NCBI GenBank assembly: GCA_973895155.1
Contig: OZ316893.1
Coordinates: 5,842,171 to 5,906,170 of the forward strand
Source: Marsupella aquatica
Lineage: Eukaryota > Plantae > Marchantiophyta
Direction: 5' to 3'
DNA: 64,000 nt
Under the pieces are notes generated by a model that had not been told where the DNA came from, made no database searches, and worked only from the letters and a program-made list of their open reading frames with translations. Shown here piece after piece: positions 27,205 through 64,000 of the stretch. The translations under genes were made by a program, and so were the position numbers. How positions within the stretch are numbered: position 1 is the first letter of the stretch; every line of letters starts with the position of its first letter.

Positions 27205-27528
27205 TGTGGGGAGAAATCAGATCAGGAAAAACACTCCAAACATACACGTGTTCAATAGTTACGTGGTTCGCCTCAAGGTTGGCTACGTCCACGGGAAGAC
27301 CAAGCTTTATTAGCGGTTATATGTCTACTCAAGCATCACCATAGCTCTCATCTCTTCAAGCTTTCATCTCTTGTTATATCACTGTGTTCTTTCTTGAGAA
27401 CTCTCTGTTGTGTTCTCACACCACATAGAAGTTGAAGAGATAAGGACCAATCTCTTCAACTAGGGTTTACTCTAACCCTAGTTAACATACTAACCATAGT
27501 TCAACCCAAGACTGAGTTAACCTTTACA
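27205..27528 (-). repeat. 3' LTR of copia element 1
   Basis: TGTGGGGAGA...CCTTTACA. About 10 differences from the 5' LTR by eye. PPT (AGGGGGAGTT on minus) is adjacent at 27529-27538. Confidence 0.95.
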
Positions 27529-28340
27529 AACTCCCCCTTGACTCACGTCTTGGGAGGGTTCATAACATTGTCTTTTCCTTACAAGTTCCTCCGTGGGAAG
27601 TTCAAGGCAGTAGGGCCAAAAGACCCTCCCCCTAATGCAAGGGTTAACTAGAACTAAGCCGTAGCCGATAAACCATCGGATGGAGTACTCATATAGAGAC
27701 ATTTTCTTGGTTAACTCTATATTTACAATATTTGTAAATAATTACAATGCCTTGAAAAACTATTGGAGTTTAATACTTTGGTAAAAACATCCGCTGGATT
27801 AAGCTTTCCATCAATCTTGACAAGCTCAAATTCATCATCCGATAATGCCTGTCGGATGAGATGATAGCGGACATCAATGTGCTTTACCCTGCCATCCATC
27901 ACCTGATTCTTGGCAGTGTAAATTGCACTTTGACTGTCACAATGAAGATATACACACTCTTGTGATAAACCCATCTCCGCGACAAGCTTTTTCAACCAAA
28001 TGGTCTCTGATGCTGCTTCTGCTGCTGCTACATACTCGGCATCCATAGTAGACTTTGCAACACACTTTTGGAGAGTAGACTTCCAACTAATGCATCCACC
28101 AGCAAGTGTAAATACATATCCAGTTGTTGATCTCCTCTTATCCAGATCATCTGCGTAGTCTGCATCCACATAACCTTGAAGCACTTTCATATTGTTTGAA
28201 CTTGCATCAAACAATAAACCCCTCTTAGTGGAACCTTTGATGTAGCGCAAAATCCATTTCACTGCTTCCCAATGAACTTTTCCTGGATTTTCCATGTATC
28301 TGCTTACCTTGCTAATGGCATAAGCTATGTCTGGTCGGGT

Positions 28341-28628
28341 CTCGGGGGGTTAACTAAGTGTATATTTTGGGGTATCACATGTGATCCTAGCCTAATATAA
28401 ATAGACCTATTTTATAAATAAAATATTCTAAGAATATTCTCCATTTTCAATATTAATAACCCTATTTTATTTTATAAAAAGTATATATTAGAGAATATTC
28501 TATAAACATGAGTTTATAATACCTTCTTTTGCCTCCTACGCTTTTTAAAAATTTAGTTAATTTCTATCAAAAATACCTATTTTGGATCGCACGTGGTTCC
28601 TAAGATTTTTGATAGTCAACCCCCCGAG
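28341..28628. mobile_element. 288-bp MITE with 8-bp TSD (hAT-like TSD length) inserted in copia RT
   Basis: TIR CTCGGGGGGTTAACTA / TAGTCAACCCCCCGAG; TSD GGTCGGGT at 28333-28340 and 28629-28636. Removal restores MVCTRPDIAY. Confidence 0.93.
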
Positions 28629-30294
28629 GGTCGGGTGCATACCATGAGATACATTAAACTACCCACAGCACAGTTTTCATAAGGAACTTTGGATATCAAA
28701 ATTTTTTCTGTCGCATCTGATGGACAAAATGCTGCAAAAATATTGAAATGCCTTGCCAAAGGAACACTCACAACCTTAGCATCTGCCATGTTGAATTTTG
28801 AGAGTACCTTCTCTGCATATCTTTTGCGTCAGCCAAAGTTTGGCTTTGTTAACATCCCTGACAATCTCCATGCCTAGGATCCTCTTGGCTGTGCCCAAAT
28901 CCTTCATCTTAAACTCAGAACTGAGTTGGGCCTTAAGCTAATCAACTTCGCCCCTATCCTCTGCTGCAATGAGCATGTCATCCACATAAAGTACAAGGAT
29001 GACAAGCTTAAAACTTGTGTTGTTCACATGCCTGATGTAAACACATGGATCGTACACGCTTTGCACAAATCCAAGCGATTTCAAAAATTCATCAAAATGC
29101 TTGTTCAATCCACTGCCTTGGGCTCTGCTTTAATCCATACAAGGATTTTAGCAACCTGCATACCAAATTTTACTTGCCATTTTGCACAAAACCCTCTGGT
29201 TGCCTCATGTAAATCACCTCATCCAACGATCCATATAAGAATGTCGTGACAACATCCATTTGATCTAAAACCAAATCAAATAAAACTTCAAGAGCACATA
29301 GCAAACGTATTGTTGAATACTTTGCTACGGGTGAAAAAACCTCATTGTAGTCTATACCTTTCTGTTGAGTAAAACCCTTGGCTACCAACCGAGCCTTATA
29401 TAAATATCTTCTCAGCATCCTCTGTGGGTCCATCTTTCTTTCTATACACCCACTTGCTGTCAATAGCCTGCTTGTCACTAGGTAGACTTGTGAGTTCCCA
29501 AGTCTTGTTATCATGAAGGGATTTAGTTTCCATGCGCATCGCCACCTGCCACTGTTGCTTCTCCATAGAAGCTAGGACCTCTCGAAATGAGGATGGATCT
29601 CCATCTTCTATCACCAATGCATCAATAGATTCTTCATCCAAATCCACATGATCAGAAGGAAGCCAAGTTCCATACCTTTCCCAAGCTTGATGTTTACGAG
29701 TTCCTTTTTGCACTGAAGACTGTGGCTGATCTGATTGTAGTGTGCTTTGCCTTACAGTATTGTCAACATATTCTTCATTTGACACATCCTCTCCTCTTAA
29801 ATCCTCTAGAGGAGGAAATTGCACTTTGTTAGTAGTAGGGAATTGATCTATCTCCCCCTCCTTCAATGATTTGTTTTCATTGAAGGATACATCCCGACTA
29901 ACAAGTGACTTGCAATCAACTGGATCCCACAATCGATATCCACATAGCTCAAAGGAGGTTTTGTAAGTAATTGCCCGACTAGGAGAGAGATTTACTAGAT
30001 AAGCAACTATGTTGACAGCTTCCGCCCAAAAGATTTGTGGCAATTTAGAGTGGCTCAACATGCTTCTTGCTCGCTCCAACAATGTGCGGTTGAGTTGCTC
30101 AGCAACACCATTTTGCTCAGGAGTGTACACAGTTGTGAGATGGTGAGTAATTCCTTTATTTGCACAATACGTGTTGAACTCGCCAGAGGTGTATTCACCA
30201 CCATTATCTGATCGTAGATATCTCACATTCTTTGCAGTTTGTGTCTCAACTTGAGCTACCCATTGTTTGAAGATGGAAAACACTTCAAACTTAT

Positions 30295-30932
30295 GGCCTC
30301 ATTCACAATTGGAGGACCCAAAAGGAACGTCACACTCAAAAGTGACCATAGTTTATTATGCTTTAGGATATCATTTTTAGGGTGTAATGAGATGATATAG
30401 AAAATTTGATGTACTATACTTAATAAACATCCTATATGTTGGTAACATTCATTAAACTATCTAGCATTTGAGACTTTGAAGCTCTCCTTATATGTCCTTC
30501 AAAGATTGATAAAAGGACTTGTCATGCAACGGGTCACATCATTTCAGGACTCAAAAAGACTCTAAAAAATGCATTTTAGACAATAATATTTTACCAAAGC
30601 ATGCATACTAATAGCATAATCTTATATTTCAAGACTTAAATAGTGACACACACTAAACCTTTATGTACAGGACAAAAATAATCAGTAATTTTGGCTTATT
30701 TAGGGCCATCAATAACAGGATCCCTTAAAACAGTTGAAAACTTGATGTATCTACATGGTGAGGTAGGTTACACCATGTAAAATAGTATTGTGAAAAAATT
30801 AGACTTAAATGTCTTGAGATAAAATCATGATGAATATTTTTTCATGTTATGAAAATTATTTTTCACTAAAAAAACATGTTTTTGAGTCCTGAAAGTGGTT
30901 CTTGCGAGGTACACCCAATTGTGAATGAGGCC
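30295..30932. mobile_element. 638-bp MITE inserted in copia integrase
   Basis: Perfect 18-bp TIR GGCCTCATTCACAATTGG / CCAATTGTGAATGAGGCC; TSD TTAT at 30291-30294 and 30933-30936. Removal restores YFIAHKFEVF. Confidence 0.93.
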
Positions 30933-33718
30933 TTATGGGCAATGAAATAAATCCAAACAAACCTTGAGTAATCATCGATAAACGATATATAGTATTGTTT
31001 ACCTGAATGTGAGGAAATTAGAGCAGGACCCCACACATCGGAATGAATATACTCAAGTACAACTTTAGAATGATGAATGACAGTCGGAAATGGAGTTCTT
31101 ATTTTCTTGCCGACAATGCAATGATCACAAAAACTCAACTTGCATGCTTGCAATCCTGGTAGGAGATGTCGCTTGTGTAGGATTTCCAAACTTTTTTCAC
31201 TCATGTGACCAAGCCGAGCATGCCATAAATTGATTTTCTCCTCCTAAAATGTGACCAAATTGACTTCGGCAAGAAGGGTGGTGCCTTCCAAGACATAGAT
31301 GTTTCTTTTCCTCTTGCCAATAAGAACTTCATTTGATCCATGCGTGACTGTTAATACCCCATCAATTGCACTCCATTGATAACCCTTCGCATCCAAGTAG
31401 CCAAGAGAAATCAAATTTTTACACATTTATGGAATGTGTCTAACATTTGATAGAGTACAGTACTTACCACCTAGTAGTTGAATCTTGGATCCAATCCCTA
31501 AAACTTTACAAGAATGATTATTTCCCATCAAAACAGATCCGTTGATAGGAGTGTAGGATGAGAAAAGTTCACGCATATAACACATGTGATACGAGCAAGC
31601 AGAATCCAAGATCCATTGACAATCCTCAACTTGGGAAGTGGTACACAATGCAAATCCTTCACTATCCTCTTCTCAAACAACTACTTGGGCTGAAGAACCA
31701 ACAACTTCCTTGAATGTGTTTTTGACGCGACAATCCTTCTTCATGTGGCCCACTTTGTCACACTTCCAACACTTTATCTCACGAGTAGACCTGGATGGTG
31801 ATTTGGATCGAGATCTAGGTCTGGATCTAAACCTCCTCCTACCAAAGGATCGATCGTGGAACCTTCCTCGCTCCATGGGAAGTGGGTTAAACCGTTTATT
31901 TTCATGAGATGACTCCCTTGTTTTGCCTCTTTCTACCAATAGTGCTGTTGATGATGAGGTTGAGGTAGGATGAGCTGAAGAAACCAGCTTAGACTGCATA
32001 TCATCGGTCAATAGGGCACTCACTACATCATTGTAGGATATAGTTGTCTTATCACGGAATAGAAGAACTCAAGACAAAGATTGGTATGAAGGTGGTAGTG
32101 AGCTCACGAGTTGTAAGGCTTTCTTTTCTTCGCTCAAATGCTCCCCCAAATTCTCTAGGTCAACCATAAGATCATTGAACTGATCGATATGATCTTGAAT
32201 CTTGACTCCATCAGCCATTTTGAATTGCATGAGCTTCAGGCTTGCATACATTCGGTTTGACATCTCCTTCTTATAGTACTTGTTGCGCAATGCTTGAAAC
32301 AAGTCCGTCACCGTTTGTGTTGCTTTTTCCTCGAACTGCTTTTTCACATTGTTTTTCAAGTACATGCCAACAATACTTATCGCTTGATCCTGGAGATCAT
32401 GCCAATCATCATCTTCCATCTCCTTGGGTTGAGATCTTATTACCTTGCCTAGGCCCATCGCCCTAAGTGCATCCCTCACGTTACGTTCCCACATTGTATA
32501 GTCCATCCGACCATCAAATTTTTCCACCTCAAAACTTTGACCTCCAATCCTAGTAGTCGACATCGCTGGAATGCCAAATGTAGTGTGGAGTCGCCTTCCG
32601 ACAAGAAATAAATGTCGAATGCTCAGATGTGGGGTGTGAAAATAAGGCCAAAAATGAAAGTTGGTGAATTTTGAAACTGATCACTCCTATGTGTAGCCCA
32701 CAAGGTAACGCTCCAAATTTTGAAAACGGTTTGTCAAATGGACTCTCGAGTGCCAAGAATTTTTACTCCAACCGGAGGGGGGTTAAAGATGAAATAATTA
32801 CCCCTCGAGGGAATCTCTTATGCCAAAGATTCCACTAGTATACTTTTTCAGAATCAAACACACCAATACTTGCCTAGCTTCCTCAAGTACGCCTCTCCAA
32901 AAGTTGAAGTTGATCCGATTTTATTTGCCGCTCAGAATCTTTGACCTTCGGTAAAAATTTAAGCCTCTGGAAAATAATCTTTTCGGGAAATTTCGTCCAC
33001 CCTTGTACAGCCCATGTGGGGGACTTCACAGGGGGCACTTCCCCCTGCCCGAGCCCTGTCGAGCCTAAAAGGCCTCCTCAAAGTTTTCGACCTCCTCGCA
33101 CGTCCGCGGAAGTCGCGACTACTCACGGCAGAAAGTACCCCTCGGCGGATTCACTCAAATTCCCGTCTCAGTGTTTGACGAAATCCAATTTTGATTTCAG
33201 ATTCAGAAACTAGACTTCGAGGGCATCAAGATTGATATAAAGAACTCGCAAAACGGTGGAGTAATGAGGGAGAAACAATTCGGTGAAAGTGACTGATATT
33301 AAGTTATTCCCCATAGCCAAAATTTTGAGCTCAAAAAATGAGAATTGAAATTAAGATTGGTTCTCAACCGTTTAACGGAATTCAACGATGTTGATATCAA
33401 AACGTCTAGAAAGACAAGGCGCTCAAGCGTATCTCAGTTTCAAGTCCCAATAGAATAATCAAAAAGACTGATCTGAGAAATTGACCTTATCTCTTGCCCG
33501 ATAACGTAAATTGAAAACCGTCACTTACAATTGTTTCCGTTTCTGACCTCAAGCTTTCACTGCTTCACTGAAATGAGCCCCTAGTTGTGTGCTCCACACT
33601 TGTGAGAAGATTGAGTCTGATCTTCTTTCAATAGCTCCGCTCCGAAGAGGAAATCATCCGCTGTTCGCTTTGCTTGAAGCAAGTTCTATGAAGTTCCTAA
33701 TCGACTGAAAAAATCTGA

Positions 33719-33730
33719 GCTCTGATACCA
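33719..33730 (-). promoter_or_regulatory. Primer-binding site (tRNA-iMet 3' end)
   Basis: GCTCTGATACCA on + reads TGGTATCAGAGC on minus, 2 nt from the 5' LTR. Confidence 0.95.
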
Positions 33731-33732
33731 AT

Positions 33733-34056
33733 TGTGGGGAGAAATCAGATCAGGAAAAACACTCCAAACATACACGTGCTCAATAGTTACGTGGTTCACT
33801 TCAAGGTTGGCTTCATCCACGGGAAGACCAAGCTTTATTAGCGGTTATATGTCTACTCAAGCATCACCATAGCTCTCATCTCTTCAAGCTTTCATCTCTT
33901 GTTATATCACTGTGTTCTCTCTTGAGAACTCTCTTGTGTGTTCTCACACCACATAGAAGTTGAAGAGATAAGGACCAATCTCTTCAACTAGGGTTTACTC
34001 TAACCCTAGTTAACATATTAACCATAGTTCAACCCAAGACTGAGTTAACCTCTACA
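33733..34056 (-). repeat. 5' LTR of copia element 1
   Basis: TGTGGGGAGA...CCTCTACA, followed by TSD GAGAG. Confidence 0.95.
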
Positions 34057-35868
34057 GAGAGAAAGTGCTCCCAATCATGCAGTGGGAGTCCTGCCCACAT
34101 CAATTCTACTTTCTAAGTCATGCAGCCGGCTACTGCCCCTACAATCTTACTTTTTATAAGGCAAGATTTTCATTCCTTATAATGGGCTTATATCAAATTG
34201 ACCATGTGAAGTTTCATTACACTAGACTAAACATACTCCTGCACCTCTCATCTCAGACAAGGAATCCATGCACACTTGTTTTCAATTGATATAAAAAACA
34301 GGATGGAAAAATTTGACCAACCCAAATTATATGACTTTTTCTGAATCAGGGTCTAAAGCCAAACTAGCCAGCTTTTTGGATTTGTTTTTCCAAAATTTAG
34401 AATTCTATTAATAAAATTTACTACTAGTTTAAGATTTGTTTCTATCCTACATGGAAAAGAAGAAAATCAAAATTAGATATGACTGAGAAAATTGTAGAAG
34501 AAGAAAACCTATCTTTTTTTTCAATTTGATGTTTTATTATACCCACCCTTAGTCCACGTAAGAATGTAGACGGTGTTTGGAGGGGGGATCACATTAATTC
34601 CATTCATTTTTTTAGGAGGATGAGAAGGGGACAACCCTGTATCAGCCAGAACATGCTCCCTGCGCACTACATGCCTGCTTCCTAGGGTGCATACTTGTCT
34701 ATTATACAAGAGTTGCATACAGGGGGCAATAATAATATTTTGTGTGCTTTTTCTATGCATTGAGCTCTACATTTAGAACCAATAAAATATCATGTATTTT
34801 ATCACACCCGATGTGCCATTTTAGTGGAACTTAGACCCAGCACTTCCTACCAGTATTAGTCGCAATGTCAGCCTATCCAAAATGACAATTGTTGCCCATA
34901 ATTGTAATTGTGAAGGCGAAAACAACAACAAGGTTGTAATGACAATTTTGGAATGCACTATCATTTTACTGCAGGAATTAAAGCATGTATAATTGCTTTA
35001 TTAACAGGGAAGCTTAGTACATACGTCCCCATATTATGTTCAACCCGTTATTTGCACCATGAAACACAATTGGAGAATGTGAGATCCTGAAGCAAGGCTC
35101 TTTATAAACTTAAGGGCATAGTCACTTGACTTGGTGTCAGTCTACTACTACTACTACTACTAAACACTGACCTCAAGATGTCGACCATCAATTCACTATT
35201 TTCTGAGCTTTTCAAAATTTGCCAACTTTTTGGTAGCCCAAATTCTGTAGATTTCTGATTTTTATTCTGTGTAAAACAAAACTTGAAATCAGATCCAAAA
35301 GATGGAGAAGAATATACAAGGAATCAAATACAAAATTAGAGAGTGCTATATGGTCAATCCACCTGTCAGTGTTTCGTCTTACTAAGAAATTTTGTCACAT
35401 ATTTTTAATTTTTGTATCACTTGTATAATCCATATTTTTGATTACTCCCTAGTATTTTTATCTTCCTATACTAGAACTCTCTCCTCCCCACTACATTTAG
35501 TTTTCAGTGCAAATTATACTTTCAAACCCATTAGCAGATTTTTTTGGAATTTCTTGCAATTCTAGTGCATGAGAGAGAATTAGTACTTTAACTTTTATTT
35601 ACCAAACTTTATGGGTTTTGTTGTCATTACTTAGGGCGGGGTATCTTTTAAACCTTATGTGTGTTAAGGTAAGAATGAGAATCAGTACTGTATAATCTGG
35701 TAATGGTTGTACATATAGTGGTGCCGGTCCGGTGACTGGCTGTAAATGGTAACATTACACCGGTTAAATTATAGTCCTTTAGTCTTAGAAGCGTCAGCCA
35801 GAAGTTAATCCAGGGTATTTAGGGAGCAGCACGCAAGGACCGGTAGCAGTTCATTGCATCCTGTTAGA

Positions 35869-36477
35869 ATGGTGGAAAGGCTAGAATTAGGAGAGGCGAC
35901 GATCATCGCGATTAGTGGCCGGATAGGAGTAGAGTTCTGTTATGAAGGTTGCGATGGCTTTCTAGCAAATGGCAAGGTCTGTGCCTTAGGCACAAGGGCT
36001 CGACAGAAAAGACAAGAGGGGACCGACATGGGAACCCCTATTAGCCGAAATCGAGTAGGGCATAGGTGTAAACCGCTAGGCGAAGGAGTGCTTATGTTTA
36101 TGTTCACCATTCGGGTGAAAGAAGGGAGTTGTCGTGTCTGGGATGAGGCCGGGCAACAATTGTTTGGAATGAAGGGCGAAGAGTTTCGTCAGCAATTCAC
36201 GACCAGCGGGGCCATTGAGGGATTCTGCCAAAATGTCATGCGGAAGAAGTGGAATCTGGTACTAAGGCGGGATAACAACCGCGATCAACGGATTGCATGG
36301 CGATTAATCACCGCCGGTCAAGTAATCGTCGCCAACAAAGCGACTACCGCTAAGGAAGGGGACGATAACCTAAATGTCGTTTCACACTTAGCAGAATTGG
36401 CGATCGAAAGTCCGGAAGCTTCCAGTTCAGGCGCCATCAAAGAAGAGAATCAAAGGCGTCGTTGCACAGTTCAGTAA
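35869..36477 (+). CDS. RPA1 C-terminal (Rep_fac-A_C)-like OB-fold protein encoded inside the TG...CA element
   Basis: Intact 202-aa ORF from ATG 35869. ATIIAI..FCYEGC..KVC..RC..FMFTIRV..GSCRVWDEAGQQLFGMKGEEF parallels RPA1 DBD-C (ATI..I..YxAC..KK..Y.l...D.tG..w...FdE.ae.llG..a.el). Confidence 0.65.
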   Translation: MVERLELGEATIIAISGRIGVEFCYEGCDGFLANGKVCALGTRARQKRQEGTDMGTPISRNRVGHRCKPLGEGVLMFMFTIRVKEGSCRVWDEAGQQLFGMKGEEFRQQFTTSGAIEGFCQNVMRKKWNLVLRRDNNRDQRIAWRLITAGQVIVANKATTAKEGDDNLNVVSHLAELAIESPEASSSGAIKEENQRRRCTVQ

Positions 36478-37342
36478 CCACAAGAATCTTCTTGACATGT
36501 AAACACGGTTCTTGGCTCGCTCATCGTTCTTGGCAGGAGACAGTTAGAGTTTCTTTGCAGATTAGCGCAGGAGACCACGGCTGAAGGGCGAACCGTCCAA
36601 CTGAAGTCGGCGCGCCCCGGAAAGTAGTTAGAAACCTCAGCAAAGACGGACGCGAGGCATAGGTATTTAGAGGCTGTGGAGCGCTAGGCGCTCTGTCACT
36701 TTTTGCTAGGAGCTTGGTTGAGAGGTAGAGCCGGACTCACCTCAAGATTACCAGCGTTTTGTATTAATGTCCCTACTCATTTTGAGTAGTTTTCGATTAT
36801 AAAGAGATGTGTATGAATGCAATAGAGTGCAGAGGAACTTTGTTACCTTGTGCTTGAGCGGTGAGTAAGAGTCCAGAGTCAACGTTGGAAGAATGTTGTG
36901 AATCAAGTCAGAAGAAGCAGTAACTTTGAAAGTCATTCGAAGAAGGAGAGGCATTCGTGATTAATACTGAGAGTCGAGGAGTGCGGTTATGGGAGTTCGC
37001 ACGAAGTACTCATTAGGAACATGTGTTAAGTCGATTAATCGTAAATCGCTGGGATGAATGGAAATCGTCTCACTACGAGTGAGGACCTTACGGTTTAGCA
37101 CGTTAAGGTAGCGATTTAACAGACAACTCGTGGGAAGCAAGGTCTGGTTGGAGATTGTGTGTATCCAGGATGTGACCTTGGTCGTCGTACACCTTCAACA
37201 TACAGGGTCAACCGTTAAATTGGGGTTCCTACTACGAATACCTCTATTTAAATTGCTTGATTTAGCCAAAGATAGATCGATTGCCAGGAAGGCCGATTGA
37301 GGGACAGCAGGACCTAACCCGGTCACTGCTACTATAACAACC

Positions 37343-37663
37343 ATGAATGTAGACAGTAAGGTGGACAAGCCTTGCTCCTTGATTAAGTTAAGACCACTGG
37401 AATTGTGGATCTGTTCCATCGGTTCCCACCTGATTACCCGAGCGTTACGCCAGGAGAGTATTCCCATCTGTTTAATTACTTACCGCTATTGGTGTGGGTT
37501 TATCGAGATCATCTACAGGGAGGGTCTGGTGTTGACTGAAGCAGTCGTGCCCAAGAGGTGGAAGGAAGAGTTAGACATTATAGAGCACTTGGTAGGATTC
37601 ACTTACGGGGACTATATAGAGGAAGAGGGGAGTACCCCGCTAGAAGGTCGGTTGATCGTTTAA
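37343..37663 (+). CDS. Unknown conserved protein (ORF2 of the TG...CA element; may be the C-terminal part of a longer decayed ORF)
   Basis: 106-aa ORF. Its last ~65 codons align without gaps to 63794-63991 (minus), with the same stop and mostly synonymous changes. Confidence 0.7.
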   Translation: MNVDSKVDKPCSLIKLRPLELWICSIGSHLITRALRQESIPICLITYRYWCGFIEIIYREGLVLTEAVVPKRWKEELDIIEHLVGFTYGDYIEEEGSTPLEGRLIV

Positions 37664-38081
37664 GCGGGAGATACTGCAAAGAAGGCAGTTAGACGTCCGT
37701 TAATCGCAAGTCAAACTGGGCGTTTAACACTGGCTGGTCTGGTCGTCCGGTCACCAGGTAGAGTCTAACACTCCCCTTTGGATATATAGTGACAATTATA
37801 TAGACAACATAGACTATACCTATTATATCATGTTCATAGGAAATACATGATATAAGTACAAGCGAGATAGACTACCTCGTTAAAAAACCTTTATCAACTC
37901 TAGCTTAGTAAAAACTCTACCAGTGTAGCAGAGAAAAATATGAGTGCTAAAGGAAAAAGAGTGCAGCCTAACAGTCCTCGTCGTAATAAATGTCAATATT
38001 AAATAAAGTTAGATGTTATGGTAAATCTAGCTTTAATATCTGTCTCAATAGTAGGTCGTCAGCATCATGTCATCAACAGCA

Positions 38082-39596
38082 TCAATCATCATGTGGAGTA
38101 GCAGCTTCCACGGTCATCATGCGTCGCACGCTCCGCAGTCCAATCGCCTGGCAGTGTCGGTGATGAACTAATGGTGGTAGTGATTTGGTGAAGAGATCTG
38201 CACAGTTGTCTGCACTTGAAATCTGCAAAATGTTGATCTCTTTTCCATGTAACTCGTGGGTGTAGAAAAACTTTGGAGCTATATGCTTCAGGCGATCGCC
38301 TTTGATGAATCCTTTTGTGATCTGCTGTATACATGCTGCGTTATCCTCAAAAATGTTAGTAGGCTTCGTTAGTGGTGGTAGGCCGCATTTGGTGTTGATA
38401 TGGTTTATAAAGGATCGTAACCAAATGGCTTCACGACTAGCCTCATGTAGAGCTAAGATTTCTGAGTGATTCGATGAGGTTGCTGTTAGGGTCTGTTTCA
38501 CGCTTTTCCAAGAAAAAGCGGTACCCCCTATGGTAAAAATGTATCCAATTTGGGATTTTGCGGTATCAGTGTCGGAGAGATATCCGGCATCCGCATATCC
38601 TATGAGCTTGTGGTTTGCACCGAATGGGTAAAATAACCCGGTATCAATGGTTCCATGTAGATATCTAAATACGTGCTTAACTCCGTTCTAGTGTCTGGTT
38701 GTGGGAGTTGCAGTATGTCTAGCTAGTAAGTTAACTGCAAATGCAATGTCTGGTCGTGTCTGATTTGCTAGATACATTAATGCTCCTATCGTAGAAAGGT
38801 ATGGGGTTTCTGGTCCTAATAGTGGTTCATGCTCTTCGTGCTTGCAAAAAACATCAGTATTGTTTCTAATGAACGTACAACCATTGGTGACGTCAATGGG
38901 TGTGCTAGGTTCATATTGAACTATTTTAGGATCTTTTCAGTTTGTGTGGTTTGATGGAGCATCATGCCAGTAGGTAAGATCTCCAGTTGTAATCCTAAGC
39001 AAAAGTTTGTATGTCCAAGGTCTTTCATCTCAAATGTTGATTTAAGACTAGTAATAGTATCTTCTGTAATTTGGGGTGTCATCTAAGTCATCAACATAGA
39101 TAGAAATGATGACATATTCGTCATCCACATGTTTAATAAATAAACATGGTGTAATGGCATCATGGGAAAAACCCATGGCAATCATTTCATCAGTAAATCT
39201 TTGATACCATACTCTGCCACTTTGTTTCAGGCCATATAATGCCTTCAACACGCGGATAGCTAGTCCACGGCGAGTATTCCGTACGGTTGACACAACGGTG
39301 TCGTTATTATGAGTTACGTGTGTAGATGACACATGAGGTGTAACTTGATATAATTGTTTTATAATCTTATGTAAATATGGGATATGCGATTTAGCGCCTT
39401 GCTCGGTGATATTGTTCCAACTCGGGAGGTGATTGCATGTATAGACAAGTGTCTAAAGTTCCATATAGATATGCGGTTGCAACATCCAGTTATCGCATTT
39501 GTAGTTTATGGAAAATGGCAAATCCGATAAGGTATCGGAATGTTGTGCTATCCATAACCGGTGAGTAAGTTTCATCGTAATGAATTCTCGGTTGTT
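38082..39596 (-). pseudogene. Bianca pol: RT (C-terminal part) and RNase H
   Basis: YDETYSPVMD, ALYGLKQSGRVWY, IYVDDL, YLANQTRPDIAFAVNLLAR, GYADAGYLSD, FEDNAAC. Several stops and frameshifts. Confidence 0.93.
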
Positions 39597-42500
39597 AACA
39601 AGAAGCCTTAAAGGGTGAGTAACAAGCCCAAACTCTAAGCACTCTCGTAAAAAAATTGCAGAAACAAAGAAAATGGCAAAAAAGTGGCCAAAAATACTAC
39701 CTGTTTATTGACAAAATTATAAAACAAATTGAAAGTATTAAAATGACACACTTTTTTCACCATCTCCTAATTACAAAATGATCTCAACTTACTTTTGATA
39801 AAATTACTACCTATAATTTTACTATGCCATTTTAGCAATTTTTACCAAAACATGATTTGTATTTTTAACAAACAATCAAATTACCTCCATAATTCATTAG
39901 ACTTGGGAAAAATTCAAATTCATAAAATATGATCTCTTTTTGACTCTCCAACATGCGCCCCTTCACTCTTTGAGGAAGACTTTTCAATGGAAGATGATAT
40001 CTCCATAAATTCACCACCTACGCTTCCAAATGTACCCGTTCTGATCCAAATCAGATCACTCAATGGCTCCTCTTTTACTCTCAACCTGGCTCTCAACATG
40101 CCTGAGTTTGATTTGTTAGGCAACATCTGAATTTCACAAACATATTGACCCAACTGGGCTCCCCCAACCTCTTCTTGGGGACCTCTTCCAAATTCTTATT
40201 CTTCCCCTTCAAGTTAATTTCTTGATATTGATTGGCTTCCAATCTCAGCCAAATGATGCAAGTGTGCCCGGGTGACCTTCTTGTGATGATCCTTTCCTTG
40301 CCGGAATTATTTGCAGCCTCAGTAGGTCTTCTTGTGTCCCCGCTTGTGTCAGCGCTCTTACACCTTCCTGGAATTTGAGAGATGTCAGATGACCATATTC
40401 ACTCTCTCCCCTTGGTGCTTGTTGCAACGCTTGACCTTTCCAAAATGCACAACAATCTGGTTTTGAGACAGGACTTAGTGTTTTTAGAAACTTGTTACAA
40501 TCGGTCTTCATGAATTCATGAGTCCGCTTTCTCAACTGTCCACTATCTTGAAGACCCTTGAGTCGGACACCCAAATTAACACTAGTCTCAACCACATGGG
40601 ATAGAACTTAACGCCCGGGGAGGCTAGTGCTCTCAAATGAGTGAGAAGAACTTAATGTAGACAAAACACACAAAAGAGCAAAAACCCTTTAACTTGAAAC
40701 AAATGAAATAACATGTTTTCATGAATAGAGGACGCCTATTTGAACTTAATTGGTCCTTTCTCTAATTTAAATGAATAAGAAATGCTTAAATCATTTTTCA
40801 ATAATTAAGCCAATCATTTCATGACATAGATGAACAAGTCAAGGAAAAAGTTGAAAAAATTATATTTCCAAAAGTTTTTTATGACACAACACTTTATTAA
40901 TTAGTCTTCTTGGCTACTAGGTGGTATCTTAGTCCTTTGACTTTTTGGCTTGTTGGGCAACTTAGGGCTTCTTTGGGCCTTTTCCCTTCCCCATACCTCC
41001 CTTTACTAGATTGCTCAATTATTAATCTCACAATATTGTTTGGACTACCCAATCCAGTTTACTTGGAGAAATAAATCATTTTTAGGTTTGCATTCCCAAG
41101 TTTCATGAGGATAAACATTGGCATTAAAAACCCATATGTTTTTGCCCACCAGTAAAAACCCATATGTTTTTACCCACCAAGATACGTACTTCCATGACTC
41201 ATGATTGGAGAGTTTGTCTTGTTGACCTACTGTTTCCATATGCTTTTTGGAATATTGGCATTTGGAGCACTTTTTGCTTTTATTTCACCATATTTTTTGC
41301 ATTTCTTGAGATTGAGTGGTTTGTCTTTATCCCCTTTTCTTTCACTTTTGAAGTCTTTCTTTTGGCTATTCTGGAGATTCTCTCCCTAAGATACCTTATT
41401 CTCTTTCATGAATTCATGAAGGGGCTACCACCTGGGAAACTGAGAAACCAAAAGCTTCATGAATTCATGAAGCCCAAAACTGGTTGTGACAAAATACAAA
41501 GGGCAAAGACTGTGTTGCAAGCTCAATGACCTACAAAGGGCTAGGGTAGCCAATTGGCTATGGCAAAGGAGGCTGCGGCCTGGAGAGGGCTATTGCCCCT
41601 CACTTAAGCTCAAGTCGCATCAAGGTGCTGTCATCAGCTGCCGATTGAGGTCAGGCCTAATTTATGGTCTGGGAACGACTGCTAATCTCTGCTGTCGCCT
41701 TCAAAATCCTGAAGCTGAAATTTTGAATTCCTGGTTTGATGTTGATGCTTTGATTGCTGGATTTCACCTGAGTGTTGGACTTTGATTTCTCAGATTTGGT
41801 TATTGAATGAGCTTCTACTGTGATTGACTGCTACTTGAATTAGCTGTGGTAGACTCTGATTCCAATTAGGGGAGATAGCCACAAAGGATCAGGGATAATT
41901 TGTGAAAAATTGAGCTTGAGAGCTAGATCTCAATCGAGCAGACCTAAGGATTGAAGGGGGAGCGAGTGGAGGATGGGAGAGGGAGCAAGGGAGATTGGAA
42001 TGGGATTGATAAGGATTGGAAGGGGATTGGAAGGGGGGCCATTTAGGGATTGGAGGAGGGTGGACAATCGACCGTCAGGGGAACGATCAACCATCAGAGG
42101 GGGATGGAGCACCGGAGGAGGGCAGTCGAGCATCAAGGGGATGATCAAACATTGGAGGGGGAGCGGTAAAAGATCGGGGGGGAGGGTTTAGGATTGGGGA
42201 AGGGTTTCACTAATCAGGGACCAGGGGAGGGCCGATCGGGAATCAAGATTGATCCAGGGAGGATTAAGGGTTGACCAGGCCTGGTCTGGGTCAAAAATGA
42301 GTCCAAGGTGGGTGGATTGGGAGCAGAAGCAAAGAGAACTATCGAGCTTGGGGGAACTAACTGGAGGGAGCTAGGAGGATCAGGTAGCTTCTTTCAGGTG
42401 AGAACCCGGCTTCATGATTTCATGAAGCCAGGTGGCTGCCCAAATCAAACTCGATGTACATTTCAATATTGGTATGGATCAAGAGAGTGGGGAGGACGTG

Positions 42501-42935
42501 AAGCGCACCAGAGTAGAGGGTGCAACAGAAGATGTAACTATTGAGCTAGCTCGGATTGAAGCAAGGATCTTCTAGAAGTGGAGAGGAGGTTAGAGAAGCC
42601 TTAGATTAGTTGAGTTGCATTGTATTTAGAGATTTAGTGGACTTAGATGCACACCTACAATGGATAGTGGCATTCTACTTAAGATTTTGAGTTTGCACAA
42701 ACTCAGATCAAAGACCGTAAATTTTATGTTTGTAATTAAGTATGGATTTGTTATTTTTGGTAATTGTGAAAATGATGTTGAAAATATCCCAAGATTTTCA
42801 TTGAAAGAATTATAATAGCAAAGTTCACAAAACATGTTTCATTTTTATATGTTTTTTTAAAGCACTTTTGGAAAAATCATGAAAATCTTGAAAAAGGAAT
42901 TCGGGCCTTGGACTCATCCCTTAAGGCTCCATGTT
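39597..42935. mobile_element. 3.3-kb non-autonomous TIR element (AACA...TGTT ends, 4-bp TSD) inserted in Bianca RT
   Basis: Imperfect 33-bp TIR AACAAGAAGCCTTAAAGGGTGAGTAACAAGCCC vs revcomp AACATGGAGCCTTAAGGGATGAGTCCAAGGCCC; TSD TGTT at 39593-39596 and 42936-42939. Removal restores GKGFTQQPRIHYDETY. Confidence 0.9.
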
Positions 42936-45900
42936 TGTTGGGTAAATCCTTTCCCTATCAGACGTGCTTTGTAGCGTACAACTTTGCCTTTATCATTTCT
43001 TTTGCGGACGAATGTCCACTTGTAGCCAATGAGGTGTACGTCTTACGGTGTTGGCTCGACTGGGCCAAAAGTGTGTCTGCTTAGTAGGGAATCTAATTCT
43101 CCATTGATAGCTTTCTGCCATTCAGGCCAATCTGGTCTGTTTTGGCATTCTAAGATGGATATTGGTTCTGGTGTCTCGTCAGTGATATGTGTTGCCACCA
43201 TTAATGCAAAAGCATCCTCTATTGAAGTAGTATTTCTATCCCACATCGTACCGGTGTGTGCGTAGTGGATAGAAATCTCTTCATGAGTTGTGGATTCGGT
43301 ATGATCGACATTAGGTGAAGGTGGTATAGATGAACCACGCCTTCTTGGTTGTTTATCCTTTGATCCCAAGGGTCTACCACGTTTGGCACGAGGCTGGGAT
43401 GTATTTGCTGGCTCACTTGATAATTCGATGCGAGCAGATGCTCTCGCAGCTGGAATATGTGAGCGGCTAACTTGTGATGTATTGACGAAAGCGTCGGGAA
43501 GATCTTCCACAATCTTGTGGAGTTGCAAAATTCGTTGAACTTCTTTCTCCCCTTGATTGGTTCTAAGGTCTTGCCAAAATGGCGAGTATCTTTCCCACTC
43601 CAAAGGTGGTTGTGGGTGTTTAGGGGTTATTAATGATGGATAAACATGTTCATCGAAATAACAATCTAGGAATCTAGATTTAAAGATGTCGCCGGTTGTA
43701 GGCTCCATATATCGGATTATGGACGGAGAGTCGAATCCGATGTATATTCCCAACTGCCGTTGGGGTCCCATCTTGGTTCGTTTGGGTGGAGTAATGGGGA
43801 CCATTACTTGACATCCAAATGAACGAAGATGTGATAGGTCAGGTTTGATACCATTAGCGATTTGGTATGGGCTATAGGTATTAAAAGCCGATGGGCGATA
43901 TTGAATTAATGCATTAGCCTGTAATATGGCATGTCCCCATGCTGAGACGGGGAGTTTCGACTATATTAGTAGTGGGCGTGCAATGAGCTGAAGGCGTTTA
44001 ATGACAGCTTCAGCTAATCCATTCGGGAAATGCACGTGGGGTACAGGATATTGTACGTCTATGCCAAGTGATGTGCAAAAGTCATCAAATATTTCAGATG
44101 TGAATTCCCCTGCATTGTCCACCCTGAGTGTCTTAATGGGGTGATCTGGGAATTGTGCTTTCACGCGCAAGATTTGCGCCAAAATGCGAGGCATAACCAT
44201 GTTCCTCGTTGAAAGCAGGGTCACATTTGACCATTTAGTGGATGCATCGATTAATACCATAAAGTAACGGAAAGGTCCGCTTGGTGGGTTAATTGGCCTG
44301 CAAACATTTGCATGGATTATTTCCAAGAATTGGGGTATTTTAGTTGGCAATTTTGATGTCGTGGGCCTTGTTATTAGTTTACCACGTGAGCATGCAGTGC
44401 ATGGGGTGCTCGCTGGAATGTGGCGTGTATTGATTGGAATGCCTCTTGAGTTCTTAATGATTTTGGTTAGCATTGATTGGCCGGGGTGGCCGAGGCGTGC
44501 ATGCCAAAGCGCATGCAATTTGCTTGTGTTGGCATTGTTATGCAGGCATTCAATATGAGTTACATAAAACCCGCAGGGGTACGAGAAAAGGGTTTCTTTA
44601 ATGATTTTCCCCGTAGGGTATTTTCAATCAAGTGGATGACCTCTTGGTCTCTTGTATCGCCTATTTGGACGTGTAGTCCATTTGCTCGTATATCTCTAAA
44701 ACTGAGGAGATTACGAGTTGCGTTCGGGGCGAAAATGGCAGATTCTATGTGTATTTCGGTACCCTGTGGGAGTCTAATAGAAGCTGGGCCGAAGCCCTCT
44801 TCTATTTGGCTAGGACCATTGATAGTGGTCAGGGACTTACGTGAAGGTGTGATCTTATGGAAAAGGTGCCTATCCCGGAGGATAGTATGCGTGGTCGCAC
44901 TATCGATAATACATGTGCTTGGACTATTTAAATCTGGTGTAGTGGAGCTACTTGCCACTAAGTGTGCCTCGGGTTGGACAGGTAGGTCTGAAAAGTCTTG
45001 GAATGGGTCACTAGACTCCATAAACGCCCCGTGGGTTTCACGGGGTGGTGGCCTAGAGGTTTGTCCATCCTGGATGGGCCGTTGGTATAAATCTCTAAGG
45101 TGTTGCAGGATTCTACAGTTTCTCGCTAGGTGGTTTGTCATGCCACATTCATGGCATTTCGGTCGTTCCCGTTGTTGTCGGGATTGTGACCAATCATTTC
45201 TATGGTTGTTGTTATATGTTCTACCACCGCTGCGTCCTCCGCGTCCACCACGTCCACCACGTCCTCCTCGTCCTCCTCGTCCTCCATGTCCTTCTTGTCC
45301 ACCATGTCCTTCACGTCCTCTAAAGGTCCGCTGGGAGTTATATTGTGGACGTTGGTTATAGAAACTCCCCCTATTGTGGGTGTTTCTTTGGTTGCCATTT
45401 TTAGTGCGCTTAATGCCTTGCCTCGATGTGGAGGGTTCAGCATTTTCTATGTTATGGGTTTCATTCTGTTGTCCTGAGGGCAGTGTGCCCGCAGGTCGTT
45501 TTCTAGAGTTTACTAAAAGAAGTTCTTGGTTTCTTTCGGTGACTAGGAGGTGGGCTATGAGCTCGGAGTATTGCCCGAACTTCATGTTTCAATACTTTGT
45601 TGATAGCCACACATTTGATGAATGAAATGTCGACAGGGTCTTCTCTAGCAGATCCTTGTCTATGACCGGCTCGCCACATAGTGCGAGGGTTGATGTTATT
45701 CTAAAGAGTTCGCTATTGTAGGCTGAAATAGAGGTAAAGTCTTGGACTCGTAGGTTTAGCTAGTCTTGCCTGGCTTTAGGTAGTTCGACCAGTTTTTGGT
45801 GGTCGAATTGGGTTTGGAGCGCTGTCCATAGTTCCCGAGGGGTTGAAAGGTGCATGTATTGTCTCTGTAGGAATCTATGGATGTGGCGTCTCAGGAATAC

Positions 45901-45962
45901 TAAGGCCTTCAATTCATTGGCTTTAGTTAACGGGTCTGGTTGGGGTTCGCCAGCTAGTATAG
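42936..45962 (-). pseudogene. Bianca gag (C-terminal part), PR, IN and RT N-terminus
   Basis: KALVFLRRH, LEKTLSTFH, RGG-rich tract, [71 protein letters not shown]. Confidence 0.93.
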
Positions 45963-48273
45963 AACACGATTTCGGACTGAACGAGAACTATTTTCTCTAA
46001 ACAAGAAGTGTATTTTCATTTTCCGCCGAATCTCGCGAAATCGGCAGTTTTTTTCATCAAAAACACGTTTTTGGGAAAATAATGTAATTCGTATCGAAGT
46101 TCGGATTGAAACAGCAAATTTAATAATGATCAAAACCAATGAAATTCATGCTAACAAACATTCAAATTATCAAGGAACAATTAGATCCAAAAAACTTTCT
46201 CCTCAACCTCATATTCACGCTCTCCGAAGATATATGAAAGGTCTTATCTCTAAATCCATATCCATGTTTCAAGCCAAGTGCGATAACTGTATCGGACTCC
46301 GGATTTGAGCCATGAAAGCTCCGACCCAATCTCAGTTTTCTCAGTTTTTGGATATTTACCAAGAATATTTTACATTACAGTCGATAAGAATTACTGCACG
46401 GTTTGTCAAACTTACCTTGCAGTTACCTCCGCAATTGACCAGTTACCTCCGCAAGTGACCATAGTCAACATGCCATTCTTTCAACAGCAATACGCAGTCC
46501 GATAAAATTATCGCGAAAACTACGGGCGACAAAAATACTAGTCGACAATACTAAGATCCTTCGGTTTATCGGTTAAATTTCAAAATTCCTATCCATATGA
46601 AGAAAACTCTTTGCAATACCAACATCAGATAAATTTATCGCTTCAATTTCAAAATTGCAACTTCCATATGAAGGAACCACTTTTGCAATACCAACATCAG
46701 ATAAATTTATCGCTTCAATTTCAAATTGCAACTTCCATATGAAAGAACCACTTTTGCAATACCAACATCAGATAAATTTATCGCTTCAATTTCAAAACTA
46801 TATAATTTTGCCATGATGCATGTGTGAGAATGAAATTGGAAATCCAAGAAATATACCCTTTTCTGCTATTTTGTCGTTTAGGGTGACAGCCAATCAAAAG
46901 TGGACATGTGGGCCAACCCCTCAACAGACACTATAAAAGGGCCACCGCCGATAAGTTTTTGGTGTCATTATCGAGAGTAGAGTTTTGGGAGTTGTGTTCT
47001 TGGAGCAACATTCTGTCCGTTGAGCCTTTCGTTTTCCCTGATTGCGGGAGGAATGCAAAGCCCCATAGTCTTACAACAGAAGTGAGCCTGTTTGTGATAC
47101 TTGTTGTCAAGACGACGACAACAATAGTTACAAGAAAACTCCAAAGAATGTAAACACGCCGTTAACATCAACCTCGAATGAATTGGAACTCCTGCATCAT
47201 TCATTCCGTAGAATTCAATGCGGAGAGGATTCTGCCTATCTCCAGGATCAGTACCACCCATCCACAATGCTCCTATACCGATGGGGAGAAATTTGAGTTG
47301 CACGAGTCTCTTGTACAACCGGCGTGCACGTTTGACACAATTTTCAAGGAAGACAGCCATTTGTCACAATACCTGTTGTCCACGAAGTGCAATCGACCTT
47401 TCATTGTGCCTCCTAAACCCGGCAACACTGCGACATCAGAGATGAAGATGAGTCTCCAAACAAAACAAAGGAAAATGATTCTCACAGGAGGATGCGATAA
47501 GTTTATCGCACTCCACATTCGAATTGAAAATATGACTTCCTCAGACACCTAAGCCCTGAATTCAATCTTTCACAAAAATGATAACTCCGATAAATTTATC
47601 GGATTCTCAATTACTCCTCTTTCCATGAAAGGAATGAAGACTCCGATAAATTTATCGGAATGAAGGCAACACCTCTCTAAACACTGGATCAAATGATTGC
47701 AACAGAGGAATGCAGAATGCAATAAATTTATCGCAGTCCGCTCGGATCTGGACATTTTACACTAAATGACTAGTTAGTCTTACATGGAGAACTTGAACAG
47801 GAATGGCTGTTCCGATAAATTTATCGGGTTTTCGGTAGAAAGAGTCGAATCGCTTGGGAGGAAGTTAAGACTCGATGGGAGTTTGGTATTCGCTCTCAGT
47901 CAGGAGATATTTGCTCTGGCGAAAGCAAATGTTTTATGGGCAGCCTGCTCCTCTTTATATAGGAGACGCTCTAAACCATGGTTAATTTCCCCTTAACCAT
48001 GGTTAAGTTTCCCCTTTACCTGGGTTAGTGCATGGTCGTTCCTGGATTACGTGGTTCGGACCAAGTTACTCGCAGTTCGGACTTTTTCACTGACGGAATG
48101 TAAAACCCGATGCACATATCGCTCCCTGCATTCCCGCGGCGATGCAATGGAGGAAAGTGGCGTTTCGGAGAGTTTTTGCCAGTTTTATCGGTCATTGCAT
48201 TGCCTTAGAAAAAAAATGGGATCGGGCTAAACGAGAACTCCGACACACTTCTCGGTCGGTCCGAAATCGTGTT
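45963..48273. mobile_element. 2.3-kb non-autonomous TIR element (AACA...TGTT ends, 4-bp TSD) inserted in Bianca gag
   Basis: TIR AACACGATTTCGGACTGAACGAGAA vs revcomp AACACGATTTCGGACCGACCGAGAA; TSD ATAG at 45959-45962 and 48274-48277. Removal restores MAQPILAGEPQPDPLTKANELKALVFL. Confidence 0.93.
46575..46797. repeat. ~71-72-bp tandem repeat (~3 units) inside the TIR element
   Basis: TTTGCAATACCAACATCAGATAAATTTATCGCTTCAATTTCAAA recurs at ~46610, ~46682 and ~46753. Confidence 0.9.
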
Positions 48274-48407
48274 ATAGGTTGGGCCATCCCTATGGCTGGG
48301 AGTAGGGTTAGCGAGGTTAGGTTTTCTTTGAGGTTCATGGACCATTCTAGGTAGTTGCCGCCATCGATTTCTAGGGCTGGAAAGGTTAGTTTTTTGAGGT
48401 TGGTCAT
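48274..48407 (-). pseudogene. Bianca gag N-terminus
   Basis: MTNLKKLTFPALEIDGGNYLEW matches the Bianca-type gag start (MsNL.KLeF.ALdi.G.NYL.W). Confidence 0.85.
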
Positions 48408-50086
48408 CTTTAAGGTCCTGGCGTGCAACGGTGGTGTGCGTGTTTATATAATATATATATAGTCAAAAGACAATGCACATTTGCCGCATGCACTGGTGGA
48501 GAAAGGGTTGAGGAAAGCAATCTAAGTCATTGGCAAGTAAAGCAAGAATGATTGGGTTTTTGCAGAATTTAGGTTTTGCACTTAGTAAATTGGTTTTCTT
48601 TGTAAATGTATAACTGCAGGGTTTCCTTTGTATTTGTTATTTCCTTTGTTAAACTGTGCAGTTATCTGGTTGCGCACTTAGGTTTGCAGTTATGGGTGAT
48701 TATTTAGTCGTGCCCTGGTTAAGTGCACATGGTGCTTTGTTAAGTTAATTTCTCATTGTTATGGTGTGCAATAATGGAGGGTTTAGCGGTTAAGTGCGGT
48801 TATGGAGCGTGCACTTAGCGGGTTTGGCTCGGTTCGACGTTCTCTCGATGTTTTGAGCTTTGAGGTTGCGCTATCTCCCTCATTTGCCGCTTCGCTCGAC
48901 CTTCTGATCTCGTTTGCAGTCGTGGCCTTCCGTCTATGGTCCTTATGGTTGCTCTCTATTGCTCATTTCGCCCTCTCGCTGTTTTCGGTGTCTCGCTACT
49001 ATCGGCCCTTCTTTCAAGTGCCCTTTTAATTTTTGTTTCCCATGGAAGTTTAGAATTCGGACGCGCCTCGTGGTTTTGTGAAACACCTTAAATGCGACGC
49101 ATCAGGCTGACCGATCTTCTCAAACGTTTCTCTCTCTCTTTCATTCACTGCTGTTCTCGAGGGTGTGGCCTCTCGCTGCCTTATCGATCTTTTGTATCCC
49201 TGTTCGGCAATCTATCTCCTCATATGAATAACTCGCTCGCGCTCGATCTCTCGTCAAGAAGGCCTCAACTGAAATTGCATCAATTTCTGTTTCGGTCTCT
49301 CGCTGCTGGTGGTCCTTATCTTTCCATTTCAATTCTCCTCCCTCGTAAACTGTCGAATGATTTCTTAATGTTTTCTCTCCCCTCCTTCCTTTGATTTGTG
49401 CAGCGGAGGGATTCTGCTGTCCTTATCAATGCTTCTCTGAAATGGTGCCGAAGTTTTTCTGCTTCAGCAATTGAACCTCCTCTGGGGCTGAGCTAGCGCG
49501 AGAGCAGAGAAGTTCACCTTCTGTTAGCAGTCATGCGTTCCAGGGCTCTCTATCTTCTCCTCTTGACTTCTCGATCCTCGTTTGTCTAATTTAATTCATT
49601 CTCACCTTGCTCCTTCGTAAGCTTTTTGTCCTCCGCCTATGGGCAACGATCCAGTTCTCACCTCGTTTCACCTCGTTTCTCGCCTTCTGGTTCTGCTTCT
49701 TCTAATTCACGTTATTATTGCTGGGGCGCTCTCGTTTTTCCTTCCTTCCTTCAGTAAGAAAAACTATCGCGGGTCTTATCTGCGCTGCGCTCCTAGTCCG
49801 ATTTTGCCTCGACCTTCAACCTTCAATCGATCGCTCCAATCTCCTCTGATCTCTGTAGGCTTTTCAAAGTTTCTTCGCTTCTTTCCGATCTCTTTTCTTC
49901 TCTCTCGATTCTCCTCCAATGAGTCCGAATCGGTGTCTCTTTGTTTTTCTGCCCTCGACTCTCTGATCTTGGATCCAATGTCTTTGTGCTCCTTAGATGT
50001 TAAAGTCGTCCTCTCAATCCCCATTCAAAAAAAAATTCAATCTTCCCTGGTCTTCTCCTTTCTATCTCGCTCCGCTGGCTGAGGCT

Positions 50087-50100
50087 TCGTGCTGATAACG
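50087..50100 (-). promoter_or_regulatory. Primer-binding site complementary to a half tRNA-Ile (anticodon arm)
   Basis: + strand TCGTGCTGATAACG equals the tRNA-Ile(AAU) anticodon arm TCGTGCTAATAACG with G at the wobble position. It abuts the 5' LTR. Confidence 0.85.
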
Positions 50101-50225
50101 TGTTAAGGTAAGAATGAGAATCAGTACTGTATAATCTGGTAATGGTTGTACATATAGTGGTGCCGGTCCGGTGACTGGCTGGTCTGGGCTGGTCTGGTCG
50201 TCCGGTCACTAGGTAGAGTCTAACA
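50101..50225 (-). repeat. 5' LTR (125 bp) of Bianca element
   Basis: TGTTAAGG...GTCTAACA, followed by TSD ATGTG. Confidence 0.95.
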
Positions 50226-63727: not shown

Positions 63728-64000
63728 TATTAAACGCCTACTTTGACCTTGCGATTAATGGCCGTTTAACTACCTTCTCCTCAGTAATCTCGTTTAAACG
63801 ATTAACCGACCTTCGAGAGGCGGCACTCCGTCTATCTCGACACAGTCCCCGTAAGTGAATCCGACCAAGTGCTCTTGAATGTCGAGTTCCGTCTTCCACT
63901 TCTTAGGCACTTCAGCCTCGGCCAACACTAACCCCTCTCTATACACAATCTCAATGAACCCACACCACTCGCGGTAAGTGATCAAGCAAATCAGAACGTT
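63728..64000 (-). mobile_element. Terminal part of a second, diverged copy of the TG...CA ORF-bearing element (runs off the window)
   Basis: Its reverse complement aligns with ~37460-37729, including the terminus (...GGCGTTTAATA vs ...GGCGTTTAACA). Confidence 0.85.
63794..64000 (-). CDS. Homolog of ORF2 (37343-37663), 5' end outside the window
   Basis: ICLITYREWCGFIEIVYREGLVLAEAEVPKKWKTELDIQEHLVGFTYGDCVEIDGVPPLEGRLIV*. Confidence 0.7.
   Translation of the reverse strand, partial: NVLICLITYREWCGFIEIVYREGLVLAEAEVPKKWKTELDIQEHLVGFTYGDCVEIDGVPPLEGRLIV

Follow-up and report, generated by a model that had tools for sequence, protein, structure and literature searches.

The 64,000-nucleotide stretch of Marsupella aquatica contig OZ316893.1 analysed here (the window) contains, within the 3' long terminal repeat (LTR) of a Bianca-type copia retrotransposon, an inserted unit with a G+C content of 47% that begins with TGTAAA and ends with TTTAACA. 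Two open reading frames (ORF1 and ORF2), a probable third coding frame and a non-coding block lie inside it (Table 1). The unit is interpreted below as the probable solo LTR of a retrotransposon family that carries genes within its LTRs. All coordinates given in a preliminary description of this DNA proved correct on re-checking.

Table 1. Features of the inserted unit, of its host element and of a related copy in the window.
Feature	Position	Strand	Remarks
Putative solo LTR	35741..37729	+	1,989 bp, TG...CA; terminal structure, empty site, multi-copy contig breaks, loose end resembling a primer-binding site
Left target-site duplication CTGGC	35736..35740	+	Single CTGGC at the empty site, 50175-50179
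Right target-site duplication CTGGC	37730..37734	+	
3' LTR of the host Bianca-type copia, split by the unit	35662..37770	-	
5' LTR of the host Bianca-type copia, supplying the empty site	50101..50225	-	
TATA-like GGGTATTTAGGG, some 50 nt upstream of the ATG of ORF1	35813..35824	+	Likeness only
ORF1, 202 amino acids, in the predicted U3	35869..36477	+	Length; start and frame kept in a diverged subfamily; profile test
70-nt non-coding block, identical in both subfamilies	36640..36709	+	0 differences; GGTATTTAGAG, a T run and a small hairpin lie within it
Probable third coding frame, 80 codons, in frame with ORF2	37058..37300	+	Interrupted at 37109-37111 by a stop that only this copy has
ORF2, 106 amino acids, orphan protein in the predicted R/U5	37343..37663	+	Ratio of nonsynonymous to synonymous substitution rates (dN/dS) 0.10; homologues P0002-P0004
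Right end of a diverged-subfamily copy, comprising its terminus and the tail of ORF2; truncated where the window ends	63728..64000	-	

Excision of the unit together with one CTGGC leaves a 115-nt LTR that differs from its sister LTR by one substitution and a 10-nt insertion or deletion. The host copia shows an ATGTG duplication, with a purine tract adjoining the split LTR and a primer site adjoining the other. A target-site duplication (TSD) in the range of 4-6 bp, with an empty site, was thereby found for the unit (CTGGC), and a second site, described below, gave ATTTC. No long inverted repeat was detected within the unit, and neither ORF1 nor ORF2 matched a gag, pol or transposase family in Pfam. 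The preliminary description had reported TG...CA ends, a perfect CTGGC duplication splitting the Bianca 3' LTR, and the absence of long terminal inverted repeats (TIRs) and of gag, pol and transposase; each of these observations was borne out, with the sister LTR providing the empty site. The unit was inserted by an integrase-type enzyme that duplicates 5 bp of its target.

Further copies were assessed on contigs of public sequencing runs, four of which were compared at 80% likeness and two (X1 and X2) at 95%. Sequence of the unit, whole or partial, was present in five of the six runs listed (three organism labels), one of which may come from the source of the window itself; no RNA run was among them. 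In X1, contigs of the close family had depths of 565-692 where the single-copy flank contig had 32; in X2 the values were 144-175 and 18. The ratios correspond to approximately 18-22 and 8-10 copies, contig depth being a crude measure. Among the multi-copy contigs, some start precisely at 35741 (X1, record 1) and some stop precisely at 37729 (X2, record 16); the dispersed copies thus have both termini in common. Among the pieces listed at 95% likeness, several distinct right flanks follow 37729, one of which starts with CTCCG. These pieces also include a left flank ending in ATTTC (X2) and a right flank starting with ATTTC (X1), which mark a second insertion with its own 5-bp TSD.

A diverged subfamily was represented at depths of 646 (X1) and 388 (X2), with 39 of 207 letters of ORF1 different, a divergence of about 19%. 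The copy cut by the window end is 77.7% identical to the unit over 264 nt, its terminal CA being replaced by TA, and the ORF2 tail of the diverged subfamily (loose ends at 37613 and 37615) agrees with it. We infer that the ORF1 pieces of the diverged subfamily belong with these ORF2-tail pieces. The earlier proposal that a diverged second member at the window end makes the unit one of a family is upheld by that copy, by the multi-copy contigs with their common termini and by the ATTTC duplication.

One X2 contig runs on beyond the terminal CA for 19 letters, as TTTT-TGGCGACCATACTGG. This motif has the position and shape of a primer-binding site (PBS), resembling a tRNA 3' end. In Ogre elements a similar Arg primer site follows a short run of T. 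Counted from TGG, the first nine letters of the X2 motif are those of a retroviral PBS printed in PMC4724089 (partial text), where they are labelled Arg and where the authors argue for Trp. With the primer-site side at the right end, the ORFs would run in the sense orientation of the element. A 647-nt contig considered as internal sequence beside the left end was rejected, its depth of 92.5 agreeing with the 92.8 predicted for 340 nt of single-copy flank plus 307 nt of repeat.

The same five letters on both sides of two insertions (CTGGC and ATTTC) would also be left by a self-contained gene cassette or a non-autonomous, Ginger- or GingerRoot-like DNA transposon mobilised by an integrase-type enzyme, and Ginger ends are likewise TG...CA (PMC6839031). 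However, the unit has no TIRs and so does not show the combination of TIRs and TSDs that marks these elements: GingerRoot has TIRs of 100-150 bp with 6-bp TSDs, and Ginger has TSDs of 4 or 6 bp (PMC6839031). The PBS-like motif beyond the right end also speaks against such a cassette, and we regard this explanation as very improbable. Of the two possibilities left side by side in the preliminary description, the solo LTR has accordingly gained ground and the free cassette has lost it.

Alternatively, the unit could be the LTR of a non-autonomous, LARD- or TRIM-like element, possessing a primer site and no gag-pol body, in which the LTR genes would be the only proteins. Gag-pol was not seen beside any copy, the contig with the PBS-like motif ends after its 19 letters, and the 1.3 kb past the window-end copy (62450-63725) matched no Pfam family in six frames. 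There is nothing direct against this alternative, which we consider unlikely; contig breaks at the termini would, however, hide a coding body, and the window-end copy, which is not followed by a PBS-like motif of the same kind, is probably itself a solo LTR or a 3' LTR.

Evidence that the putative solo LTR carries genes kept by selection comes from ORF2, which terminates 66 bp from the right end, as had been noted before. Its length is unremarkable alone, being reached in 366 of 2,000 shuffles. The preliminary description would have had both ORFs judged by dN/dS; for ORF2 the value was computed over the 68 codons in common with the window-end copy, yielding a dN of 0.16, a dS of 1.6 and a ratio of 0.10. 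The ratio of the uncorrected proportions (pN/pS) was 0.22 (bootstrap 0.13-0.36), synonymous sites being near saturation. Differences were distributed 12/9/32 over the three codon positions (Fisher p 6e-11) and the stop is the same in both copies. The other frames over this region lack such a codon pattern, except for an antisense frame whose third positions coincide with those of ORF2 and which contains stops; the antisense frame 37195-37467 is unsupported and without a Pfam match. ORF2 is under strong purifying selection.

A HMMER search of 1.84 billion proteins recovered three homologues of ORF2 (P0002-P0004) with identities of 75, 48 and 42%, the best of which starts at the methionine of ORF2. 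All three are nameless singletons on short contigs, and a conserved core, C-x-x-T-Y-x-x-W-C-G-F-I-x-I, was apparent. An Atlas search with P0002 gave only leads below 0.9 (0.76, to Peptidase_A17 clusters), and no fold could be assigned to ORF2 from this or from library searches by sequence.

The region upstream of ORF2 in the same frame, absent from the preliminary description, is probably also coding. Apart from the stop peculiar to this copy, five differences separate it from the family contigs, and none of them alters an amino acid. A match to the diverged subfamily covers 37105-37162, and the loose ends of that subfamily, translated in this frame, give similar residues. In run X5, 12 nt are inserted at 37282. 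No homologue of the frame was found by HMMER among the 1.84 billion proteins. Between the stop at 37298-37300 and the in-phase start of ORF2 lie 14 open codons, and read-through would yield a protein of about 200 amino acids. A single long ORF2 (37058-37663) was rejected, since the family contigs retain that stop and the best homologue begins at the ORF2 ATG. Read-through joining the two frames is conceivable; the 201-residue product found no match in a word-based protein search.

An ATG frame as long as ORF1 arose in 3 of 2,000 shuffles. In the diverged subfamily the ATG lies at the same place, and two gap-free blocks aligned by eye differ by the 39 of 207 letters given above and by 13 of 98. 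A 3-nt deletion is present near 36435-36446, and a loose end covering 36379-36408 retains the residues H, A, L and I. The TATA-like GGGTATTTAGGG is a possible, weak candidate for the promoter of this ORF. The preliminary description had called it an intact RPA-like ORF in the first third of the unit. The ORF itself stands, and the RPA label received weak support from two tests aimed at this prior guess, for which an RPA1-C profile was built from 62 archaeal PF08646 domains. HMMER returned a weak match of 5.0 bits, reached by 7 of 2,000 shuffles and by none of 67 other frames in the window; with hhalign the local score was 28.2, and none of 233 shuffles scored as well.

Predicted models of ORF1 contain a strand, a gap, two strands, three helices and two strands, which is the order of elements in RPA1-C. 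Foldseek returned RPA from Ustilago, yeast, human and Pyrococcus among its non-significant rows (E 2.2-8.2, TM below 0.2, 139-180 columns), and the best VIA-align Z of 3.3 was to unrelated chains. The weak resemblance to the C-terminal OB-fold of RPA1 (Pfam PF08646, Rep_fac-A_C) consists of a Y-x-x-C motif, a strand, helices and two strands in colinear order, the segment W-D-E-A-G-Q-Q-L-F-G-M-K-G-E-E of ORF1 being aligned to L-F-G-E-Q-A-E-K-L-L-G-K-T-A-E-E of the profile. ORF1 differs from that family in scoring below all library thresholds, in its incomplete zinc ligands and in being a single domain. Residues 1-150 probably form an OB-fold of the RPA1-C type in which the zinc site has degenerated, ahead of a low-structure tail. 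An RPA-like ancestry is on the whole moderately probable.

Plant Helitrons carry RPA genes (PMC9033089, partial text) and one of these is a plausible donor. ORF1 itself lies inside an LTR and not in a rolling-circle element. Such a gene, or a host fragment, might have been captured in an ancestral LTR and copied since as a passenger without function. The changes in ORF1 within the close family, which look neutral, and the broken middle frame of this copy would suit that explanation. However, it may account for the origin of ORF1 and not for its retention: the start, frame and residues of ORF1 are kept at about 19% divergence, and the dN/dS of ORF2 is low with synonymous sites near saturation. 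Passenger genes are in our judgement quite improbable.

Between the genes lies the 70-nt block, a non-coding sequence better kept than the genes of the unit. Its TATA-like GGTATTTAGAG starts at 36662, where the preliminary description had placed a sequence of this kind, and the hairpin occupies 36676-36696. The depth of the block, 974 in X1 and 422 in X2, is about the sum of both subfamilies, compared with 565-692 and 144-175 for the sequence beside it, and loose ends flank the block on both sides. The predicted folding of the interval 36670-36790 does not exceed that of shuffled sequence (z -0.98). A search of Rfam and scans of metagenome and viral contigs gave no match. The block is a candidate for the core promoter and the border between U3 and R. 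With a core promoter at this position, U3 would contain ORF1, and the other frames would fall in an R/U5 of about 1 kb.

We estimate at roughly 75% the probability that the unit is a solo LTR belonging to a multi-copy family of plant LTR retrotransposons, with at least two small genes kept by selection, likely encoding accessory proteins. The earlier suggestion of a solo LTR with accessory genes is thus supported by the common termini, the second TSD, the PBS-like motif and the purifying selection on ORF2. As to lineage, TatIII, Ogre and Retand have Arg primers and 5-bp TSDs, Phygy, Selgy and TatI have 4-bp TSDs, and LTRs in the Tat lineages reach about 5 kb (PMC6317226, partial text); Tat elements have been found in liverworts, mosses and ferns (PMC13468544, partial text). 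The unit combines a 5-bp TSD with a long LTR as in Ty3/gypsy OTA/Tat elements, a combination not unique to them; the primer sites that mark OTA/Tat elements are of tRNA-Arg, or of Lys, Asp or Trp. A Ty3/gypsy, Tat-like lineage is likely.

Several observations weigh against this interpretation. The PBS-like motif is known from a single loose end of 19 letters, and only one of the two runs compared at 95% has it. When viral contigs were searched for the primer motif there were 94 matches, and none of the 60 loci scanned contained a tRNA that would name the primer. The contigs, which break at the termini, showed neither a polypurine tract nor a second LTR nor gag-pol, and the only left extension among the pieces listed is single-copy flank by depth arithmetic. 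The promoter assignment draws on conservation only. The retention of ORF1 across subfamilies, in start, frame and residues, is read from the alignment made by eye, and this copy differs from its close family by two synonymous and seven other changes in ORF1, which looks neutral. ORF1 has no database homologue in word-based protein searches, which covered near and shorter lengths and not longer forms, and nothing, RPA included, was matched in sequence searches of Pfam (E up to 1), PHROGs, NCBIfam and PDB. Its single-sequence models are poor (pLDDT 38 and 42), and the hhalign probability for RPA1-C was 34-39% locally and 0.4% globally, the global alignment being colinear. Residues C24, C28, C38, H65 and C67 fall in the region matching the profile; their spacing differs and the four-cysteine site is incomplete. 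The neutral-looking differences in ORF1 are as expected from decay after insertion. C/G transitions make up 23 of the 27 differences scored in this copy, and 20 of these transitions stand in a CG or CHG context; the copy appears from this pattern to be methylated and decaying.

A history consistent with the solo LTR would begin with insertion of a full element into the Bianca LTR, followed by loss of its body through recombination between its LTRs. Transcription would start mainly from the conserved block, situated in mid-repeat. ORF1, in U3, would then either occupy the 3' end of the genomic transcript or have an upstream promoter of its own, in the manner of sag and nef. The 80-codon frame and ORF2, in R/U5, would precede the primer site as upstream frames of the 5' leader, where they may tune gag translation or encode regulators. 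An R/U5 of about 1 kb would entail a long first-strand DNA to be transferred during reverse transcription, and ORF1 might, speculatively, be an RPA-like protein that binds single-stranded DNA, coating and protecting the first strand and aiding strand transfer. The genes would on this account serve the element in accessory roles. More tentatively still, and less probably than not, the LTR may have become an accessory module of two to three genes arranged around a promoter, including an RPA-like binder of single-stranded DNA that chaperones the long strong-stop DNA or shields the element from host silencing, with solo LTRs spreading intact, self-promoted genes in the genome.

Genes inside the LTR would be present in two copies per full element and would be kept by each solo LTR. 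They would survive solo-LTR formation, the main route by which the host deletes retrotransposon genes. An RPA-like protein, if this is true, would provide a concrete and testable function for an accessory gene, which most plant examples do not have.

The host Bianca-type copia spans approximately 14.5 kb (35662-50225), with very short LTRs of 115 and 125 nt; Bianca elements range from 4.2 to 8.6 kb, far below this size, and are primed by a half-tRNA-Ile (PMC6317226, partial text). It contains long non-coding stretches with tandem repeats (46565-48121), and very high contig depth was recorded just inside its 3' LTR. Nested insertions within it are likely because it is oversized, has repeat-rich non-coding stretches and attracts high-depth contigs. 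Just past its 5' LTR lie exons of a host gene resembling class-V aminotransferases (51600-53720). A second copia element occupies 27205-34056, with 324-nt LTRs that are 97% alike and a broken gag-pol. Also in the window are an intact 527-codon ORF on the minus strand (8903-10486) with no Pfam match above the cut-off, a fragment of a reverse transcriptase of the long interspersed nuclear element type (17607-18806) and a PADRE-like gene. An exact look-up of 8 proteins of the window matched none; the Bianca-type element, the PADRE-like gene and the CG/CHG decay point to a land plant. A non-autonomous CACTA-like element (60700-62320) carries inverted arrays of 24-nt subterminal repeats at its two ends, with a CACTA motif close to 62320; the 1.3 kb separating it from the window-end copy (62450-63725) is GC-rich (52%).

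LTRs are normally non-coding in plants, and annotation pipelines seek extra ORFs between the LTRs. Retroviruses have genes that overlap their LTRs, namely sag of mouse mammary tumour virus, nef of lentiviruses and the bet/tas region of foamy viruses. Like these, the unit has a protein gene in or overlapping its predicted U3, in the sense of the genome; unlike these, it belongs to a plant host, bears no sequence relation to them and has further genes on the predicted R/U5 side. Its TG...CA ends, 5-bp TSD and kilobase length resemble those of solo LTRs of plant Ty3/gypsy OTA/Tat elements (TatIII, Ogre and Retand), with which it also shares a putative TGG-type primer site a few bases past the LTR and a tendency to extra ORFs (PMC6317226, partial text). 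No reverse transcriptase was seen with the unit, which is a likely and not an established member of that group.

Additional ORFs of plant LTR retrotransposons sit in the internal region (reviewed in PMC7264820). The genes of the unit resemble gene23 of Grande, those of RIRE2 and Retand and the env-like ORFs (PMC7264820), as well as ORF0 of Retrosat2, RIRE3 and RIRE8, which in Retrosat2 lies upstream of gag (PMC3485330, partial text), in being family-wide orphan genes kept by selection and proposed as accessory factors. Rotifer ORF3s are captured extra genes beside gag and pol (PMC5408684, partial text). Whereas the published plant additional or extra ORFs (aORFs or eORFs) either precede gag or separate pol from the 3' LTR, those of the unit are wholly inside a repeat bounded by TSDs, and they stand on both sides of a candidate promoter. 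The additional-ORF domains given in the available part of PMC6317226 include no OB-fold, and a literature search, from whose coverage subscription papers were mostly excluded, gave no plant example of ORFs inside LTRs or of RPA or OB-fold genes in LTR elements. Extra ORFs between the LTRs of plant elements are known, whereas genes maintained by selection inside the LTR itself, with a putative accessory function, would be new.

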